From assembly GCF_058153355.1 (NCBI RefSeq), contig NZ_CM177019.1: 64,000 nt of DNA; one strand, written 5' to 3'. The notes under the pieces were generated by a model, which saw nothing but the letters and a program-made list of their open reading frames with translations, had not been told where the DNA came from and did no database searches. The position numbers and the translations under genes are program-made. This document shows positions 1,996 to 11,349 of the stretch, piece by piece. Position 1 is the first letter of the stretch; every line of letters begins with the position of its first letter.

Positions 1996-3357
1996 GTGGA
2001 AAAAGAAAATATCACCCTCGATCCGCGTTCTTCATTTACTCCATCTTCGTCGGCAGATATTCCCGTGCCACCAGATGGATTAGTTCAACGCAGTACCCGA
2101 ATTAAACGCATTCAAACCACCGCCATGTTGTTATTATTTTTTGCGGCGGTAATCAATTATCTCGACCGCAGTTCACTGTCGGTAGCAAATTTAACGATTC
2201 GTGAAGAATTGGGATTAAGTGCCACCGAAATCGGCGCTTTGCTCTCCGTGTTTTCACTCGCTTACGGGATTGCGCAACTTCCTTGCGGCCCACTATTGGA
2301 TCGTAAAGGCCCGCGCCTGATGCTGGGACTGGGGATGTTCTTCTGGTCACTGTTCCAGGCAATGTCTGGCATGGTGCACAGCTTTACGCAGTTCGTGTTG
2401 GTGCGTATCGGTATGGGGATTGGTGAAGCGCCGATGAACCCATGCGGTGTAAAAGTCATTAACGACTGGTTCAACATCAAAGAGCGCGGACGCCCGATGG
2501 GCTTCTTCAACGCAGCTTCTACCATTGGCGTTGCCGTAAGCCCACCGATTCTGGCGGCGATGATGCTGGTGATGGGCTGGCGCGGGATGTTTATTACCAT
2601 TGGTGTACTGGGGATTTTTCTCGCCATTGGCTGGTATATGCTCTATCGCAACCGCGAGCACGTAGAACTGACTGCCGTTGAACAAGCCTATCTCAATGCC
2701 GGTAGCGTCAATGCCCGCCGTGATCCACTCAGTTTTGCTGAATGGCGCAGCCTGTTCCGTAACCGCACAATGTGGGGAATGATGCTCGGATTCAGTGGCA
2801 TCAATTACACTGCGTGGCTGTATCTGGCCTGGCTGCCAGGTTACCTGCAAACAGCCTATAATCTGGATTTAAAAAGCACCGGGTTGATGGCGGCTATCCC
2901 TTTCCTGTTTGGGGCTGCCGGGATGCTGGTCAATGGTTACGTTACCGACTGGCTGGTCAAAGGAGGAATGGCTCCGATTAAAAGCCGTAAGATCTGCATT
3001 ATTGCCGGGATGTTCTGTTCTGCCGCCTTTACGCTGGTAGTACCGCAAGCGACAACATCCATGACAGCGGTTCTGCTGATTGGCATGGCACTGTTCTGTA
3101 TTCACTTTGCTGGAACATCCTGCTGGGGATTGATCCACGTCGCTGTCGCTTCTCGCATGACTGCATCGGTGGGCAGTATCCAGAACTTTGCCAGCTTCAT
3201 CTGCGCCTCTTTCGCGCCGATCATTACTGGTTTTATTGTCGATACCACCCACTCATTCCGTCTGGCGCTAATCATCTGCGGTTGCGTCACCGCGGCGGGT
3301 GCACTGGCATACATCTTCCTGGTTCGTCAGCCGATCAACGACCCACGTAAAGATTAA
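1996..3357 (+). CDS. lgoT: MFS transporter, L-galactonate:H+ symporter
   Basis: 453-aa multi-TM MFS protein, GTG start after ACAGGAG RBS; length and position match K-12 YjjL/LgoT. Confidence 0.85.
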   Translation: MEKENITLDPRSSFTPSSSADIPVPPDGLVQRSTRIKRIQTTAMLLLFFAAVINYLDRSSLSVANLTIREELGLSATEIGALLSVFSLAYGIAQLPCGPLLDRKGPRLMLGLGMFFWSLFQAMSGMVHSFTQFVLVRIGMGIGEAPMNPCGVKVINDWFNIKERGRPMGFFNAASTIGVAVSPPILAAMMLVMGWRGMFITIGVLGIFLAIGWYMLYRNREHVELTAVEQAYLNAGSVNARRDPLSFAEWRSLFRNRTMWGMMLGFSGINYTAWLYLAWLPGYLQTAYNLDLKSTGLMAAIPFLFGAAGMLVNGYVTDWLVKGGMAPIKSRKICIIAGMFCSAAFTLVVPQATTSMTAVLLIGMALFCIHFAGTSCWGLIHVAVASRMTASVGSIQNFASFICASFAPIITGFIVDTTHSFRLALIICGCVTAAGALAYIFLVRQPINDPRKD

Positions 3358-3366
3358 TTTCCCTAT

Positions 3367-3399
3367 GCCCGATAACATTTTGCTTATCGGGCATTTTTA
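3367..3399. terminator. Hairpin terminator between convergent lgoT and tsr
   Basis: Inverted repeat gcccgataa / ttatcgggc followed by ATTTTTA on the plus strand. Confidence 0.6.
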
Positions 3400-3405
3400 T
3401 GGCGA

Positions 3406-5070
3406 TTAAAACGTTTCCCAGTTCTCTCCGCTATCTGCCACTGCCACTTTGCGCGGCGCAGATGGCGTCACAGTTTTTACTACTGCCGATGCTTCGCGCT
3501 GGCGTTGCTGCTCTTGCTGAATCCGGAACACTGCCACAGCTTCGGTCAGGCGACTGGCCTGCTCCTCCAGCGCGGCGGCGGCGGCGGCAGATTCTTCCAC
3601 CAGCGCGGCGTTTTGTTGGGTTACCCGGTCCATCTCAGCTACTGCTAAGCCAACCTGATCGATACCACGGCTCTGCTCATCAGAAGCCGAAGCAATTTCG
3701 CCCATAATGTCCGTCACGCGGGTCACAGCGCTGACAATCTCTGCCATGGTTTCCCCGGCGCTTTCGACCAGCGTAGAGCCAACATCCACTTTGCCCACCG
3801 AGTCTTCAATCAGGCTTTTAATTTCGCGAGCCGCCTGAGCGCTACGCTGGGCCAGATTACGCACTTCTCCCGCAACCACCGCAAAACCGCGCCCTTGCTC
3901 ACCCGCACGCGCTGCTTCAACCGCCGCGTTCAAAGCCAGAATATTGGTCTGGAAGGCAATGCCGTCAATTACGCTGATAATATCGGCGATTTTCTGCGAA
4001 CTGGTGGAGATATCGCGCATGGTCTGCACCACGTTATCCACCACTTTGCCGCCGCGTTGCGCCGTTTCGGAAGCACTTAACGCCAGGTGGCTGGCCTGAC
4101 GCGCATTTTCGGCGTTCTGCTTCACCGTTGCGGTCAGTTGCTCCATGCTGGCTGCCGTCTCTTCCAGCGAAGCGGCCTGTTGCTCGGTGCGCGAAGAAAG
4201 ATCGTTATTGCCGGTGGCGATTTCGCTGGCACCGCTATAGATAGCATTGGCCCCGTTGCGCACATCACCGACGGTACGCATCAGCTCTCCCTGCATATGG
4301 CGCAAACTCTCTGCCAGTTGCCCCATCTCATTAGAACCATCCACCTCAATCGGTTTCACCAGATCGCCACCTGCAATATGACGAATGCTGTCAATCAGGC
4401 GATTCATTGGCGCTACCAACGAGGCTTTAATACCGAACCAGACGGCGAAGATGACTGCCAGTACGACGATCATCACGCCCACCAGAATCCACATCGCCTG
4501 GCTGTAGGAGGCATTATTATCGCTGACGGCGATATCATAGAGCCGATCGTTTTGCTCCATGTAAGCCACATACTGCTTCTCGAAACCGTCCTGATATCCC
4601 TGAGTCGGCTGATCAAAGAATTCGTTGATTTTGCCTGCACCTAACAGTTGGATCAGTTCCGCCAGCGCATTGTGATAAATATCGTAATTACGTTTGATCT
4701 CTGCCGCTGCGGCGGTGCTCTGACGCGGGTCACGCGGCAATGCTTCGTAATCCGCCCAGTTTTTTTCCGCCTGTTTCAGCGAAATACTGGCACTCTGCAT
4801 CAGCTCGGCAACGGTTGAACCGCTACCAATATTGTTCTGATCCATCATGTAGCGGATCCCCGCGCGGTTGAGGGTGTTACGCGTCTGTAACAACGCGACC
4901 CAGCTGCCATTCAGCGTGGATTGCTGCTGGCGAATGGTTTGTAAAACAGTGAAATTTTCTTTGTCATTCTTTAAGGCATTAAAGAACAGACCGCCTGATG
5001 TCAGTTGTAAAAGGCCAAAAACGGCCAAAACCAGCAGTAAGCTGGTCACGATCTTGATACGTTTTAACAT
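3406..5070 (-). CDS. tsr: Methyl-accepting chemotaxis protein I (serine chemoreceptor)
   Basis: [14 protein letters not shown]-terminus, periplasmic ligand domain, conserved MCP signalling region ([32 protein letters not shown]), C-terminal NWETF. Start taken at Met6 of the listed ORF. Confidence 0.95.
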
Positions 5071-5101
5071 GGTTTCTCTTTCCACTAGACAGATACACTG
5101 G

Positions 5102-5128
5102 TTGTCGGCCTGGTGGTGGAAAACTTTA
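5102..5128 (-). promoter_or_regulatory. sigma28 (FliA) class-III flagellar promoter of tsr
   Basis: Minus strand reads TAAAGTTT-N11-GCCGACAA, near-perfect match to FliA consensus TAAAGTTT-N11-GCCGATAA, about 30 nt upstream of the tsr start. Confidence 0.7.
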
Positions 5129-5209
5129 TGCTGTGGAAAAGCGTCGGCACTGCTTTTGTTGCAGCAAACTTGCGTTTTTTGTGAGGGTCACACTCTATAG
5201 CGGCAGTTT

Positions 5210-6115
5210 ATGGTACAAAGTATCAATCTTCTTCGAACCAGTGATACTCCCATGGCTTATAGCATCGATATCATCTCCTGTATTACCGAACGGTTTATGG
5301 CGTTAACCGCCACTGAAAAGCGTATCGCACAATTTATTCTTGATGACGTCTCTGCCGCAGTAGAGTTGCCAATTGCTGAGCTGGCACGGTTAACGCAAAC
5401 CAGTCAGGCGTCGGTGACGCGTTTTGCCCGTGCTCTGGGGTGCAAAGATGTCCGCGAGTTGAAAGTCAAACTGGCGCAGTCACTGGCTGTCGGGCAGCGG
5501 TTTATTCTCGATGTACCGGATCTTGACGGTGTTCAGGGGATCTACGAAGCGATTATTAGCGTGCTGGAAACGCATCGTCGTTCGCTGGATATGAATGCCA
5601 TCAGCCAGGCTGTAAGCTGGTTAAGTCAGGCGCGGCAAATTCTTGCGTTAGGAACTGGCGGCGGTTCCACTATCTGTTCACAGGAGATTCAGTACCGTTT
5701 ATTCCGTCTGGGGCTACCGGTGGTCAGTCAGAATGATGCCCTGATGATGAGAATGATGTGCTCGGCAGTGATGCCGCAGGATGTGGTGATTGTGCTGTCG
5801 CTGGGCGGTTATACACCGGAAATCATCGAAAGTGCGGCAATCGCCCGTCAGTATGGCGCGCGTGTTATTGCCATTACGCCAGCACAAACACCGCTGGCAG
5901 AACAGGTAGATCTGGTATTGCCGTTACTGGTTCAGGAGAGTGATTACATTTTTAAGCCCACCCCTTCCCGCTACGCGATGTTAGCCATGGTCGATGTACT
6001 GGCAACAGAACTGGCAATGGCAAATAAAGCGCAGGCGAAAGATCGCCTGCGGCGGATAAAACTGGTGTTAGACAGCCACCGTGGGGGCGCTAACCGCCAG
6101 CCACTTGGCGATTAG
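5210..6115 (+). CDS. RpiR/MurR-family transcriptional regulator (HTH_6 plus SIS sugar-phosphate-binding domain)
   Basis: HTH segment LARLTQTSQASVTRFARALGCKDVRELK; SIS-like ILALGTGGGS; start uncertain (Met at 5210, 5252 or 5297). Confidence 0.75.
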   Translation: MVQSINLLRTSDTPMAYSIDIISCITERFMALTATEKRIAQFILDDVSAAVELPIAELARLTQTSQASVTRFARALGCKDVRELKVKLAQSLAVGQRFILDVPDLDGVQGIYEAIISVLETHRRSLDMNAISQAVSWLSQARQILALGTGGGSTICSQEIQYRLFRLGLPVVSQNDALMMRMMCSAVMPQDVVIVLSLGGYTPEIIESAAIARQYGARVIAITPAQTPLAEQVDLVLPLLVQESDYIFKPTPSRYAMLAMVDVLATELAMANKAQAKDRLRRIKLVLDSHRGGANRQPLGD

Positions 6116-6124
6116 CATTGTCGG

Positions 6125-7594
6125 TTATGCTTCTTCAGGTTTGGTGATCACGACACTCTGGTTTTCACGCTCATTGGTGATAATAGCCAAAGCTTCTTCC
6201 CGGCTGACCTGACTTGCTGGCGTTACCAACGTCACCAGTACGCCAGCGACCAGGCTGCCCAGCACTGACGGAATACACGGGTTACCCCAGTAAGCCAGCC
6301 AGTCGGCATTCATCAGCACCACAATTGACATCACCATACCGCTCACTAACGCCGCCAGCGCGCCCTGCCAGTTAAAGCGTAGCCAGAAGCGACCGAGAAT
6401 CGAGCAGATAAACAGCCCGGACATCAGCATCGAAATCATTTTGGTAATGTAGCTGATGATGTCATTAGAGGTCAGAGCAAAGACCAGCGCCAGGCCAATA
6501 ACAAAGGTCAACATCCAGCGTGAGTAAGTAATGGCCTTGTCCTCCGGCGGCATTCTGCCGGTAATCATGGTGTAGACGTCGCGCATCATAATCGCCACCG
6601 CCGCGATGGCATCGGAGCTGGCGGAAGACATGGTGGCTGAAAGCCCGGCAATCAGCACCACCAGCCCAAGAATGGCAGGTAAGAAACTGGTCGCGAACAA
6701 GAAGGCGTAGTTGCTGTTTTCCAGATTTGGGTTCATGGTGAACGCCGCCATGCCGATAATGGCAGGCAGAATCGAGAAGAACAGATACAACACGCCAGTA
6801 ATAACAAATGAACGCCGTACAGAGGGAACGTCTTTTCCCGAGTAAATACGCTGGCGATAAGACGGTGTTGCCAGCACACCTACGCCAATAACCAGTGCCA
6901 GCGAAAGCGCAGGCAGCACGCCCATTTTATCAATCGCAAACAGGCTCATCGCTTTTGGGTCCATCGCCTGCTCAATCGCACTCCAGCCGCCAACGTGAAC
7001 AACGGCAAGAATAGCCATTAATATAAAGCCAAAGAACAGAATTAGGGCCTGAATAGTATCTGTCCACACTACCGCCGAATAACCGCCGATAATAACGTAA
7101 ATCGCAAAGGCCAAAGCGATAATTAATTTTGCTACAGTAAGATCAATACCCGTCGCCCAGGCAAGATACATACTGCCACCTAATATATGCGCTCCCAGCC
7201 AGCCAATAGAGGCAATAAATATCATCAGGCCGACAATATTTTTAATTAAATGGCTGCCGCCAGTATAATAAGATATTTCTTCACTCATGGTCATAAAACG
7301 TAATTTACGTACCGGTGCAAACAGCCACGCCACCAGTAATATACCTACGGCCCCACCGACGCCATAAAGCATTCCGGCCCAGCCATTGCTGTAGCCAAAG
7401 CCCACTGCGCCCATACTGGAACCCGTGCCAACCATCGTGGCAACGGTTGACCCCAGCGTCAGAAACAGCGGCAGCGAACGCCCGCCCAGCAGAAAATCTT
7501 CTCCGCTTTTCTGATTACGAGAAACAAACCAACCAAGCCAAATCATGGCGATGGCATAAATAATAAAGCCGACTAAAAAGATATGACTGTTCAT
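6125..7594 (-). CDS. Sodium:solute symporter (SSS) family transporter
   Basis: 489-aa polytopic membrane protein with SSS-type N-terminal region (GGRSLPLFLTLGSTVATMVGTGSSMG). Confidence 0.75.
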   Translation of the reverse strand: MNSHIFLVGFIIYAIAMIWLGWFVSRNQKSGEDFLLGGRSLPLFLTLGSTVATMVGTGSSMGAVGFGYSNGWAGMLYGVGGAVGILLVAWLFAPVRKLRFMTMSEEISYYTGGSHLIKNIVGLMIFIASIGWLGAHILGGSMYLAWATGIDLTVAKLIIALAFAIYVIIGGYSAVVWTDTIQALILFFGFILMAILAVVHVGGWSAIEQAMDPKAMSLFAIDKMGVLPALSLALVIGVGVLATPSYRQRIYSGKDVPSVRRSFVITGVLYLFFSILPAIIGMAAFTMNPNLENSNYAFLFATSFLPAILGLVVLIAGLSATMSSASSDAIAAVAIMMRDVYTMITGRMPPEDKAITYSRWMLTFVIGLALVFALTSNDIISYITKMISMLMSGLFICSILGRFWLRFNWQGALAALVSGMVMSIVVLMNADWLAYWGNPCIPSVLGSLVAGVLVTLVTPASQVSREEALAIITNERENQSVVITKPEEA

Positions 7595-7696
7595 AATTCA
7601 CATCCTGCCAGTAGAGAGAAATTAATGTAAGAGTTCCCGGAGTGCTGAATGTATTCAGCACTCAATTGCGGTCTGTTTTTTTAATTCTTAAATTTA

Positions 7697-8092
7697 TTAG
7701 CGGGTCGCGTTATAACAGGTCACATCGACTTCGACTTTACAATCGACAACCAGATCAGCCACACAACAAATACGTGCAGGCGGATTCTCGCCAAAAAATT
7801 CTCTGAATACTTTATTAAATGACTGGAAATAGCGGGCGTCGGTCAGGATCACTTTCACGTGAACCACATCCGCCAGGCTATAACCGGCTTCAGTCATGAT
7901 GTCGACACAGTTTTGGATCGCCAGTCGTGACTGTTCAACGATTCCGCCTTCTACCACTTCACCGTTTTTCATGGGTGTTTGCCCGGAGACGTACAGCCAG
8001 CCGCCCGCCTCAACCGCCCTGGCAAAAGGCAAATGCTGCCCGCCAGTGCCTGTTCCACCTTCCGTACCGTAACGTTTAATGCTCATATTCAC
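7697..8092 (-). CDS. RidA/YjgF-family reactive enamine/imine deaminase
   Basis: 131-aa protein with RidA-fold signatures; 3 bp downstream of the aminoacylase gene. Confidence 0.8.
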   Translation of the reverse strand: MNMSIKRYGTEGGTGTGGQHLPFARAVEAGGWLYVSGQTPMKNGEVVEGGIVEQSRLAIQNCVDIMTEAGYSLADVVHVKVILTDARYFQSFNKVFREFFGENPPARICCVADLVVDCKVEVDVTCYNATR

Positions 8093-8095
8093 TCC

Positions 8096-9547
8096 TTAAT
8101 GTGAGGTCTGCCGGCGCAGGAAGCGTCCCGCACGGCCTGTAATGTGTTTATCGCGACCATAGCTCATAACGCCGTTCACCATCACCGCCTCAATGCCATC
8201 TGCCGGGCGTTTGGGATCAGAAAAGCTGGCAACATCACGAATGGTTTGTGGATCGAACAACACCAGGTCCGCAAAATAGCCAACTTTCACCAGTCCACGC
8301 TGGGGCAGGCGAAAACGGCTGGCAGAAAGCCCGGTCATTTTGTGGATAGCCGTGGTCAGTGGGAATAAGCCTTCATCACGGCAATAGTGGCCCAGCACGC
8401 GAGGGAAGGCGCCCCATAAACGTGGATGCGGCATGGGATCATTGGGCAGGCCGTCAGAGCCAATCATACTGACCGGATAACTCAACACTCGGCGGACGTC
8501 GCGCTCGTCCATGTTGTAATAGATAGCCCCGGCAGGCATTAGCAGCTTCGCGGCCTCCAGCATACTCATCTGCCAGTCGATGGCGATTTGCGCCAGTGTT
8601 TTCCCGGCCTGCTGCGGATGTGTTTGTGACCAGGTGATCACAATATCGAATTCGTCGGTGACTTGTTTGAGATCCAGCGTTGAAGAGCTGGCTGAGTAAG
8701 GGTAGACATCGCAGCCAATTTCCTGGTGTTGACGCATTTGGTCAAAAAAAGCCAATGTTTCTTTTGTCCGCCCCCAGTTTTTCGCCCCGGCGCATTTATG
8801 GTGGGAAACCACGATAGGCACTTTGCCATGACGCCCAATACGAAACGCCTCATCCAGGGCATCGAGAATCGGTTCAAATTCAGAACGCAGATGGGTGGTA
8901 TAAACGCCCTTCTCACCGGCTAATTCTTCCGCCAGCGCCATGACTTCTTCGGTAGTCGCCTGAAATGCCGTTGCATAGGCCAGCCCGGAACTTAACCCCA
9001 GCGCCCCCTGACTCAACGCCAGACGTAAGTCGGCACGCATAGCGGCAATTTCATCCACCGTCGCCGGGCGAAACAGGTCGTCCATATGGTTATTACGCAG
9101 CGCCGTATGACCAATCAGCGTGCCAACGTTCAGTGACGGCCTGGCTGCTTCCACTGCCTGGGCATAGCTTTCAACGGTGGGATAAATAAAGTGCTCTGCT
9201 TCCCCCAACAGATTCATCGGGTCAGGAACTTCACCTTTCATTTTCGCCGACGCCGCACTAATCCCGCAGTTACCGACAATCACCGTAGTGATCCCCTGGC
9301 TGATCTTTGGCAGATATTCCGGGATGCGAATAACGTTGATATCGTCATGGGTATGAACGTCGATAAACCCTGGTGCCAGCACCCGCCCTTCCCCGTCAAT
9401 GACCTGCTGCGCCGTAACGTTAAGCGCAGGGGCAATATCGACAATCCGATCACCTGTTATTGCCACGTCACCGCGAAATTCAGGGCCGCCGCTACCGTCG
9501 ATAACGGTCACATTTTTGATTAACCAGTCAACCTGCATGTTCGTCAC
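8096..9547 (-). CDS. N-acyl-D-amino-acid deacylase (D-aminoacylase) family amidohydrolase
   Basis: 483 aa; metal-binding HTHDD motif near N-terminus, GNCG segment, length typical of D-aminoacylases. Confidence 0.75.
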   Translation of the reverse strand: MTNMQVDWLIKNVTVIDGSGGPEFRGDVAITGDRIVDIAPALNVTAQQVIDGEGRVLAPGFIDVHTHDDINVIRIPEYLPKISQGITTVIVGNCGISAASAKMKGEVPDPMNLLGEAEHFIYPTVESYAQAVEAARPSLNVGTLIGHTALRNNHMDDLFRPATVDEIAAMRADLRLALSQGALGLSSGLAYATAFQATTEEVMALAEELAGEKGVYTTHLRSEFEPILDALDEAFRIGRHGKVPIVVSHHKCAGAKNWGRTKETLAFFDQMRQHQEIGCDVYPYSASSSTLDLKQVTDEFDIVITWSQTHPQQAGKTLAQIAIDWQMSMLEAAKLLMPAGAIYYNMDERDVRRVLSYPVSMIGSDGLPNDPMPHPRLWGAFPRVLGHYCRDEGLFPLTTAIHKMTGLSASRFRLPQRGLVKVGYFADLVLFDPQTIRDVASFSDPKRPADGIEAVMVNGVMSYGRDKHITGRAGRFLRRQTSH

Positions 9548-9738
9548 TCCATTTCTGCAATGGTGACAAGTTAACCATTTACAAGGACGAAAAACAGTGG
9601 AAAACTACGCAAAACCCAGATGATTTTATGATACTTTTATTCATAAACTATAAGATAAATAAACTAAATATTTATATTTCATTTAGTTACAAATGATACC
9701 CATATCCGATACGGTGAAAAACTTAAAAGGTAAATGTT

Positions 9739-10959
9739 ATGAAATACCACTCAGAACCTCTGGTTCCCCATAAATCGGCCCTGATGCAAATGCCCGCAAA
9801 TCTCCTTGCCGAAGATGTCTGTTTACCTGCCGCGATCATTAAAAAGCAGGCCCTGGAGAACAACATTACGTGGATGCAACGCTACGCTGACGCGCGCGGC
9901 GTTTCACTGGCACCGCACGGTAAAACCACCATGACGCCGTGGATTTTTCAGGCGCAGCAGGCGGCAGGCGCCTGGGCAATAGGTGTCGGTAGCGCATGGC
10001 AGGCTGGTGCGGCAATGGCGAGCGGTATTCAGCGTGTGCTGATGGTTAACCAGTTGATCGGCAAGGCAAATATGCAGTTGATTGCCCGGTTGCAACGACA
10101 TTACCCGACGGTCGATTTTATCTGCTGTATCGACAGCATTGAGAACGCCCGCGCTTTGTCTGCCTTTTTTGCCAGTCAGCAACAGACACTGAACGTGATG
10201 ATTGAGCTGGGTGTTCCCGGCGGACGCTGTGGTTGCCGCTCAACGGATGCAGCACTGGCACTGGCTAAACAGGCGGCCCAATTACCAGGGCTACGTCTGC
10301 GCGGGCTTGAGTTATATGAAGGTGTTTTACACGGTGACGATCCACAACCGCAGGTAGAAGCTCTGCTGCGGGATGCCGCACAACTGGCCTGTGATATGGC
10401 AAGTTTGGTTGATGGCGAGTTTATTCTCACCGGAGCAGGCACGGTCTGGTATGACGTGGTGTGCAATATCTGGCTGGCGGCAGAAAAGCCTGATAACTGC
10501 CGCATTGTTATTCGCCCTGGCTGCTACATCACTCACGACACCGGGATCTACGACGCGGCACAACAACAGTTGCTCGCCCGTGATCCTGTGGCCTGTGATC
10601 TGGCAGGCGATCTCACATCTGCGCTGGAACTGGTCGCCATGGTGCAATCGGTGCCGGAAGCTGATCGTGCGGTGGTAAATTTTGGTAAGCGTGATTGCGC
10701 CTTCGACGCCGGACTGCCGCAACCAGTCGCCCACTATCGCAACGGCAAATCACTGGCATTTGATCCACAGGCGATTCGCAGTACAGGTATTATGGATCAG
10801 CACTGCATGTTGCAACTGTCAGCTAATAGCGACGTGCAAGTGGGGGATATTCTGGTGTTTGGCACATCGCATCCGTGCCTGACCTTCGACAAATGGAAAA
10901 CGTTGTTATTGGCTGATGACGACTACAACGTACTGGCGGAATTAGACACTCTCTTCTAA
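9739..10959 (+). CDS. Alanine-racemase-fold PLP enzyme of the DSD1 / D-threonine aldolase / D-serine dehydratase-like family
   Basis: 406 aa; PLP-lysine motif APHGKT near N-terminus; divergent from the aminoacylase operon across an AT-rich 190-bp spacer. Confidence 0.7.
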   Translation: MKYHSEPLVPHKSALMQMPANLLAEDVCLPAAIIKKQALENNITWMQRYADARGVSLAPHGKTTMTPWIFQAQQAAGAWAIGVGSAWQAGAAMASGIQRVLMVNQLIGKANMQLIARLQRHYPTVDFICCIDSIENARALSAFFASQQQTLNVMIELGVPGGRCGCRSTDAALALAKQAAQLPGLRLRGLELYEGVLHGDDPQPQVEALLRDAAQLACDMASLVDGEFILTGAGTVWYDVVCNIWLAAEKPDNCRIVIRPGCYITHDTGIYDAAQQQLLARDPVACDLAGDLTSALELVAMVQSVPEADRAVVNFGKRDCAFDAGLPQPVAHYRNGKSLAFDPQAIRSTGIMDQHCMLQLSANSDVQVGDILVFGTSHPCLTFDKWKTLLLADDDYNVLAELDTLF

Positions 10960-10964
10960 GAATA

Positions 10965-10996
10965 CCCCTTCGGTTAATTATCGAAGGGGCATTTTT
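10965..10996 (+). terminator. Rho-independent terminator after the DSD1-like gene
   Basis: ccccttcg / cgaagggg stem followed by CATTTTTATT. Confidence 0.7.
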
Positions 10997-11042
10997 ATTG
11001 TGATCTCAATCACATATCCACCCGACGAATAATTCTTGCCCA

Positions 11043-11070: not shown

Positions 11071-11349
11071 CGTCCCAAATATAACCACTCAGTTATTTAC
11101 CTTACTTTACGCGCGCGTAACTCTGGCAACATCACTGCAGGATAGCGGTCAATTTACCTCCTCAAACGCAACGCAAACCTAGAACGGCTTCGGCCTATGA
11201 TTAACAAATTACTCTATGGATTTTGGTTTGCAGGAAGGCAGCAAGTGAGTGAATCCCCGGGAGCTTACAAAAGTAAGTGACAGGGGTGAACGAACGCAGC
11301 TGCCGCACCTGTAAGCCAAAAGACGACGAGTAAAATGCCAGGTTTTACT

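Follow-up and report, generated by a model that had tools for sequence, protein, structure and literature searches.

The sequence at 5102–5128 on the minus strand of the window (the whole 64 kb stretch of DNA that was analyzed) is very probably a functional class-3 FliA promoter of tsr, placed at one edge of the variable slot that separates tsr from btsT and carried as a diverged allele inherited together with the gene cassette filling this slot; its activity in this strain, its transcription start and its evolutionary route are what we infer. The promoter as such is already known, being the well-studied textbook FliA promoter of tsr, and only its slot-edge position and its cassette-linked variant are added here.

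The sigma-28 promoter of tsr

The promoter and the gene that it precedes are arranged as follows:

5128–5121, minus strand: −35 octamer TAAAGTTT, 8/8 consensus bases
5120–5110, minus strand: 11-nt spacer TCCACCACCAG
5109–5102, minus strand: −10 octamer GCCGACAA, 7/8 against the consensus GCCGATAA; GCCGAAAA in K-12 tsr
5071–5095, minus strand: 5′ UTR of tsr, with the Shine-Dalgarno-like GGAAAGAG at 5083–5076
5070–3406, minus strand: tsr coding sequence (serine chemoreceptor, 554 aa), with its ATG at 5070

Read along the minus strand, the order is CACAG, CA, TAAAGTTT, TCCACCACCAG, GCCGACAA, CCAGTGTATCTGTCTAGTGGAAAGAGAAACC and ATG, with CCAGTG directly after the −10 octamer and the ATG 31 nt after it. 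The GTG at 5085, an artefact of choosing the longest ORF, was rejected as the tsr start in favor of the ATG at 5070. Compared with the sigma-28 consensus TAAAGTTT-N11-GCCGATAA, as quoted by Hollands et al. (2010; PMC2859248), the tsr promoter matched at 15/16 bases, i.e., with one mismatch, and was the sole match at ≤3 mismatches in the 64 kb window. The −10 part of this consensus combines an extended −10 GC with a CGA core.

At the same position, K-12 tsr carries TAAAGTTT-TTCCTTTCCAG-GCCGAAAA, likewise with an N11 spacer. ChIP-seq of FliA gave a strong peak (score 94) over the K-12 motif, TAAAGTTTTTCCTTTCCAGGCCGAAAAT, and the tsr RNA value of K-12 is 630 in the wild type but 9 in a fliA mutant (Fitzgerald et al., 2014; PMC4183435). 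Genomic SELEX with the RpoF holoenzyme located a site in the yjiY/tsr spacer (Shimada et al., 2017; PMC5493296), and tsr is counted among eight well-characterized sigma-28 operons (Hollands et al., 2010; PMC2859248). The original prediction of a sigma-28 promoter of tsr at 5102–5128 is thus borne out, as the motif is found at exactly these coordinates and is the positional ortholog of the FliA-dependent K-12 promoter. Judged from its sequence, the motif represents a genuine, conserved sigma-28 promoter that is allelic to the known one.

Conservation was evaluated on 27 motif-anchored tsr upstream regions, representing more than 20 genera or species and four E. coli haplotypes among the loci listed. 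The information content per position was 1.87 bits in the −35 octamer and 1.76 bits in the −10 octamer, as against 0.74 bits in the spacer, 0.24 bits in the upstream flank and 0.45 bits in the downstream flank. The spacer was 11 nt long in 27/27 regions while its sequence varied, and the −35 octamer was invariant in all four E. coli tsr-upstream haplotypes. In motif-matching Enterobacteriaceae orthologs (≥82% Tsr identity), the octamers were located 28–34 nt before the ATG. In the −10 octamer of tsr orthologs, GCCGA and the last two A were near-invariant and position 6 was A, C or T; the C present in the window was also found in the Siccibacter tsr ortholog. Position 6 also deviates from the consensus in the proven K-12 promoter of tsr (A) and in that of aer (C). 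The aer promoter with C at this position is functional, its full in vivo activity requiring CRP (PMC2859248).

A fortuitous resemblance to the consensus, with tsr being transcribed from elsewhere, appears extremely improbable. A consensus match alone is not proof, and dinucleotide-preserving shuffles of the window yielded 0.85 matches per window when three mismatches were allowed; at ≤1 mismatch, however, 0/100 shuffles contained any match. Moreover, the site is orthologous to one that is FliA-bound and FliA-dependent in K-12, and it is the motif that is conserved across genera and not its flanks. A scan of 4900–5400 for sigma-70-like promoters and terminators found none, and hence neither a promoter competing for tsr nor a clear promoter for the divergent RpiR gene.

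The transcription start is predicted to lie most likely at G5096, the sixth nucleotide after the −10 octamer, which would give a leader of ∼26 nt. The prediction follows the spacing at aer, where primer extension placed the start 6 bp after the −10 octamer (Hollands et al., 2010; PMC2859248), and the same offset is implied by the K-12 CRP site centered at −132.5 of tsr. No published nucleotide-level tsr start was found in the texts searched, and the supplements of Romero 2014 and Kim 2012 hold no tsr entry. The start had earlier been expected 7–10 nt downstream of the −10 octamer, a range that is slightly off and should include 6 in view of the aer start. The sigma-28 RNA polymerase would recognize TAAAGTTT and GCCGACAA, 11 nt apart, and start ∼6 nt past the latter, near G5096, producing the ∼26-nt leader with the Shine-Dalgarno sequence GGAAAGAG; tsr would accordingly be expressed only late in the flagellar hierarchy, after FlgM export frees FliA.

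Contents and edges of the tsr-btsT slot

The DNA between tsr and btsT contains the following features, the genes being named according to RefSeq and Pfam:

5131–10964: cassette without a K-12 counterpart
5252–6115, plus strand: RpiR/MurR regulator
6125–7594, minus strand: sodium:solute symporter
7697–8086, minus strand: RidA
8096–9538, minus strand: N-acyl-D-amino-acid deacylase-like amidohydrolase (D-aminoacylase-type)
9739–10959, plus strand: D-serine-dehydratase-like deaminase
10965–10989, plus strand: terminator-like hairpin followed by a T run, 3′ of the deaminase gene
10999–11014: near-perfect CRP site TGTGATCTCAATCACA, orthologous to the −132.5 site of K-12 tsr, beside btsT only
11110–11096, minus strand: perfect CpxR consensus box GTAAAGTAAGGTAAA, upstream of btsT

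By BLAST, the last position alignable to K-12 is 5130, which is 2 bp upstream of the −35 octamer; the left boundary of the island does lie at the tsr promoter, as had been proposed. All four E. coli upstream sequences diverge within 0–2 bp of TAAAGTTT. On the right side, K-12 homology resumes at the CRP site, just past the terminator-like hairpin; from the 3′ half of this hairpin (10965–10989) onward, the window carries the same allele that is found downstream of hpaC in hpa-type strains. A 9-mer, TCACACTCT, common to the K-12 filler and the left end of the island was dismissed as compatible with chance (rough expectation about 0.1).

The notion of a single insertion into a K-12-like genome could not be upheld, as the slot has at least four alternative contents in E. 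coli:

Empty as in K-12, with btsT 377 bp away: 2752 genomes
hpa cluster: 2071 genomes
One gene for a 180-aa hypothetical protein, O157:H7 type: 363 genomes
RpiR cassette as in the window: 193 genomes

Of about 5389 genomes matching the tsr region, 5379 fall into these four states; among the remaining genomes, the few that were inspected showed IS-mediated loss of tsr.

The deaminase, the amidohydrolase, RidA and the symporter being encoded together suggest that the cassette probably functions in N-acyl-D-amino-acid or D-amino-acid catabolism, leading from an N-acyl-D-amino-acid to a 2-oxo-acid. The cassette happens to sit between the gene of a serine chemoreceptor and that of a pyruvate transporter. 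In strain MB52, the RpiR cassette is extended by an Ldh-family oxidoreductase, an APC permease and an aldehyde dehydrogenase. The five genes code for a regulator, a transporter and three enzymes, with no mobility genes among them. No direct or terminal inverted repeats were found to pair the two junctions (near 5131 and near 10997), the annotation of the syntenic record has no tRNA from lgoD to yjiA, and the base composition is not deviant (G+C of 0.46–0.55 in the cassette and 0.45–0.57 in the flanks). A site-specific insertion mechanism was rejected, as the island ends carry no att-like or IS-like repeat pairs.

The RpiR gene had been placed only about 80 bp beyond the promoter on the other strand. 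This holds for the longest ORF, whose ATG at 5210 is 81 nt beyond the −35 edge, but not for the likelier start at 5252. In two E. coli genomes, RefSeq starts this gene at the ATG corresponding to 5252, and conservation of the gene with Leclercia also stops at this ATG; a gap of 123 nt between the RpiR start and the −35 edge is thus more likely on comparative grounds. An inverted-repeat pair, AGTTTATGGTACAAAGTATCA / TGATACTTTTATTCATAAACT, is present at 5205–5225 and 9629–9649, where the cassette has its two divergent promoter regions, and its core, TACTTTGTACCATAA, is conserved upstream of the Leclercia RpiR gene. The pair could serve the RpiR regulator as an operator, and it also argues for a gene start at 5252 and not at 5210.

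The CRP and CpxR sites, which are near tsr in K-12, are located about 5.9 kb from the tsr promoter in the window, the distance of the CpxR box from the tsr −35 octamer being about 200 bp in K-12 and about 6 kb in the window. CRP at −132.5 has no detectable effect on tsr in K-12 (PMC2859248). tsr is listed as Cpx-repressed in the literature, with one conflicting result, and the CpxR box may mediate this repression.

Just upstream of btsT, a 130-bp imperfect palindrome is inserted at 11205–11334, with an RNA fold of −61.7 kcal/mol (z = −8.8), and it might be ERIC/IRU-like. K-12, O157 and two other RpiR-type strains lack it, and the MB52 copy is 100% identical. Its megablast matches are at this locus only, one place per genome, and at ≥80% coverage it is present in 2061 genomes, approximately the number of hpa-type genomes. 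This distribution suggests that the btsT-proximal flank of the window is of the hpa type.

The slot is also occupied variously in other genera. Among the loci listed, which include no Salmonella, Escherichia albertii or E. fergusonii, btsT adjoins tsr in at least six species of other genera, including Citrobacter and several Enterobacter, and the tsr-btsT spacer of C. youngae (355 bp) is similar in length to that of K-12. In Enterobacter cloacae, hpaR adjoins tsr. In Leclercia adecarboxylata, tsr is adjoined by the complete RpiR cassette, its five genes ordered and oriented as in the window, and then by hpaR. Other genes are found beside tsr in Kluyvera, Pseudescherichia, C. werkmanii, Pseudocitrobacter and others.

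Divergence of the promoter allele and its linkage to the cassette

Over the first 300 nt of the tsr coding sequence, the window is 98% identical to K-12, 81% to Citrobacter youngae and 83% to Leclercia, and the hpa-type and O157-type alleles are also 98% identical to the window; overall, the window tsr is 96% identical to K-12 tsr. Over the 60 nt from the junction to the ATG, the identity is 77% to K-12, 79% to C. youngae, 77% to E. cloacae and 75% to Leclercia. The 14 differences from K-12 in these 60 nt all fall within 5084–5120, sparing both the GCCGA core and the −35 octamer, and are distributed over the spacer (5/11), the −10 octamer (1/8) and the 5′ UTR (about 8/18). From the Shine-Dalgarno sequence onward (5083–5071), the window is identical to K-12, whereas 5084–5101 is strongly diverged. 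The earlier statement that the insertion left the tsr regulatory region essentially untouched is contradicted by these figures, since the identity to K-12 over the 60 nt is no better than that to other genera while the adjoining coding sequence reaches 98%. It fails upstream of the −35 octamer as well, where all the DNA has been replaced and the CRP site and CpxR box have been left with btsT, ∼5.9 kb off.

A 58-nt query holding the window promoter and leader allele matched exactly 193 E. coli genomes, and the RpiR island was present in 193/5426 E. coli genomes; the linkage of allele and island is one of equal counts (193 and 193) and not of a genome-by-genome list. As both were counted in 193 genomes, the promoter allele appears to travel with the island. 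On this comparison, the window promoter is a diverged allele co-inherited with the cassette and not K-12-type sequence left in place, and E. coli-level homology would really resume only at the Shine-Dalgarno sequence (5083). Purifying selection would have preserved nothing here but the pair of sigma-28 octamers, the length of the spacer and the Shine-Dalgarno sequence, and the sharp junction at the −35 octamer would largely be the footprint of selection on the octamers and not a recombination end-point. The locus thus offers an example at nucleotide resolution of how a promoter comes to mimic an island boundary when purifying selection acts on two 8-bp contacts of the sigma factor, and it calls for caution in annotation, as BLAST end-points at conserved motifs are not the same as recombination breakpoints.

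Some variation was also observed at the opposite end of tsr. The last 150 nt of the gene (3′ end, 3406–3560) are 85% identical to K-12 as compared to 95–99% elsewhere, and the window Tsr has 554 aa vs. 551 aa in K-12, the stretch just before the C-terminus appearing variable. On the plus strand, TAAAGATTAATTTCCCTATGCCCGATAA at 3348–3375 is the ortholog of a weak FliA ChIP-seq site designated “tsr/yjiZ convergent” (score 3; Fitzgerald et al., PMC4183435). This site overlaps with the stop codon of lgoT, in an orientation that would be antisense to tsr, and the CCCGATAA within it forms one arm of the bidirectional lgoT/tsr terminator hairpin.

In the rest of the window, 13401–38400 contains an immigration-control-type region with type I restriction-modification hsd genes, DUF262 genes and the inverse autotransporter gene iatD; no complete E. 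coli genome exceeds about 95% identity to this stretch, which is matched in 5 pieces. The segment 38401–63400 (mcrBC, uxuAB, gntP and fim) is 98.6% identical to strain MB50. The strain of the window has no close representative among the genomes compared.

Origin of the slot haplotypes and comparison with known systems

According to one explanation, the cassette was simply inserted upstream of an unchanged, resident K-12-like promoter, and tsr is regulated as in K-12. BLAST homology to K-12 up to 5130 with both octamers intact is in line with this, and CRP at −132.5 is without a detectable effect on tsr in K-12, so its loss may not matter. The explanation is nevertheless improbable in view of the 14 positions that differ from K-12 over the 60 nt leading up to the ATG, as compared to about 2% in the adjacent coding sequence, the identity of these 60 nt to K-12 being no higher than to other genera, the confinement of the promoter allele to 193 genomes, and the displacement of the distal CpxR and CRP sites by ∼5.9 kb. 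The allele count and the divergence largely refute it. The opposite polarity, in which the tsr-RpiR cassette arrangement is ancestral or very old and was deleted in K-12-type genomes, is less easily set aside but still seems unlikely, as tsr-btsT adjacency is the commonest state in other genera (at least six species among the loci listed) and only 193/5426 E. coli genomes contain the cassette. It draws support from Leclercia adecarboxylata, which has the same five-gene cassette next to tsr with proteins 76–96% identical, a range similar to that of the core genes (Tsr 87%, LgoT 91% and LgoR 84%). Two further points in its favor are the window 5′ UTR, which is closer to the Citrobacter/Enterobacter form (ATCTGTCTAG.GG) than to the K-12 form, and the same right-flank allele in RpiR-type and hpa-type strains.

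We favor the reading in which the empty slot is ancestral and cargo was gained and then swapped through homologous recombination within the core genes on either side, a process that would move whole haplotypes. The limits of the slot are the tsr −35 octamer at its left end and the btsT terminator/CRP site at its right end. More tentatively, the tsr-btsT gap could be regarded as a promoter-anchored cassette slot with edges pinned within a few bp, whose haplotypes, each consisting of cargo with its own diverged tsr promoter and leader, are exchanged by homologous recombination and persist as a long-lived trans-genus polymorphism. If so, strain-specific tsr regulation could be expected, e.g., through lost proximity of the Cpx or CRP sites or through read-through from hpaR. 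The four E. coli tsr-upstream haplotypes may differ in tsr expression or Cpx control, and such differences matter when results on K-12 chemotaxis are extrapolated to other strains.

The window promoter shares with the K-12 tsr promoter an identical −35 octamer, an 11-nt spacer, the GCCGA core, the Shine-Dalgarno sequence and a position 30–31 nt before the ATG. It differs from K-12 at 5/11 spacer positions and at −10 position 6 (C in the window, A in K-12); its leader is 1 nt longer with ∼8 differing positions, and all the DNA upstream of the −35 octamer is different. The GCCGAC variant of the −10 octamer is common to the window tsr promoter and the E. coli aer sigma-28 promoter (TAAAGATA-N11-GCCGACAT). 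The aer −35 octamer, however, is weaker (6/8), and the promoter needs CRP at −49.5 (Hollands et al., 2010), whereas the −35 octamer of the window tsr promoter is perfect and has no CRP site in its vicinity.

At the level of the slot, the closest parallel is the hpa (4-hydroxyphenylacetate) cluster of E. coli B, C and W type strains, which fills the same tsr-btsT slot and has the right-flank allele in common with the window. Unlike the window, the hpa-type strains carry 11 hpa genes as cargo and a K-12-type tsr spacer and leader with one spacer difference. The location of the hpa cluster next to tsr is presumably already published. Chromosomal hotspots of integration or replacement between conserved core genes are a general concept from E. 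coli pangenome studies. The tsr-btsT slot resembles such hotspots in harboring non-homologous alternative cargo between the same core genes, here without mobility genes or att-like repeats and with states that recur across genera; it is unlike them in that both of its edges coincide within a few bp with regulatory elements, the tsr edge with the sigma-28 −35 octamer and the btsT edge with the terminator/CRP site.
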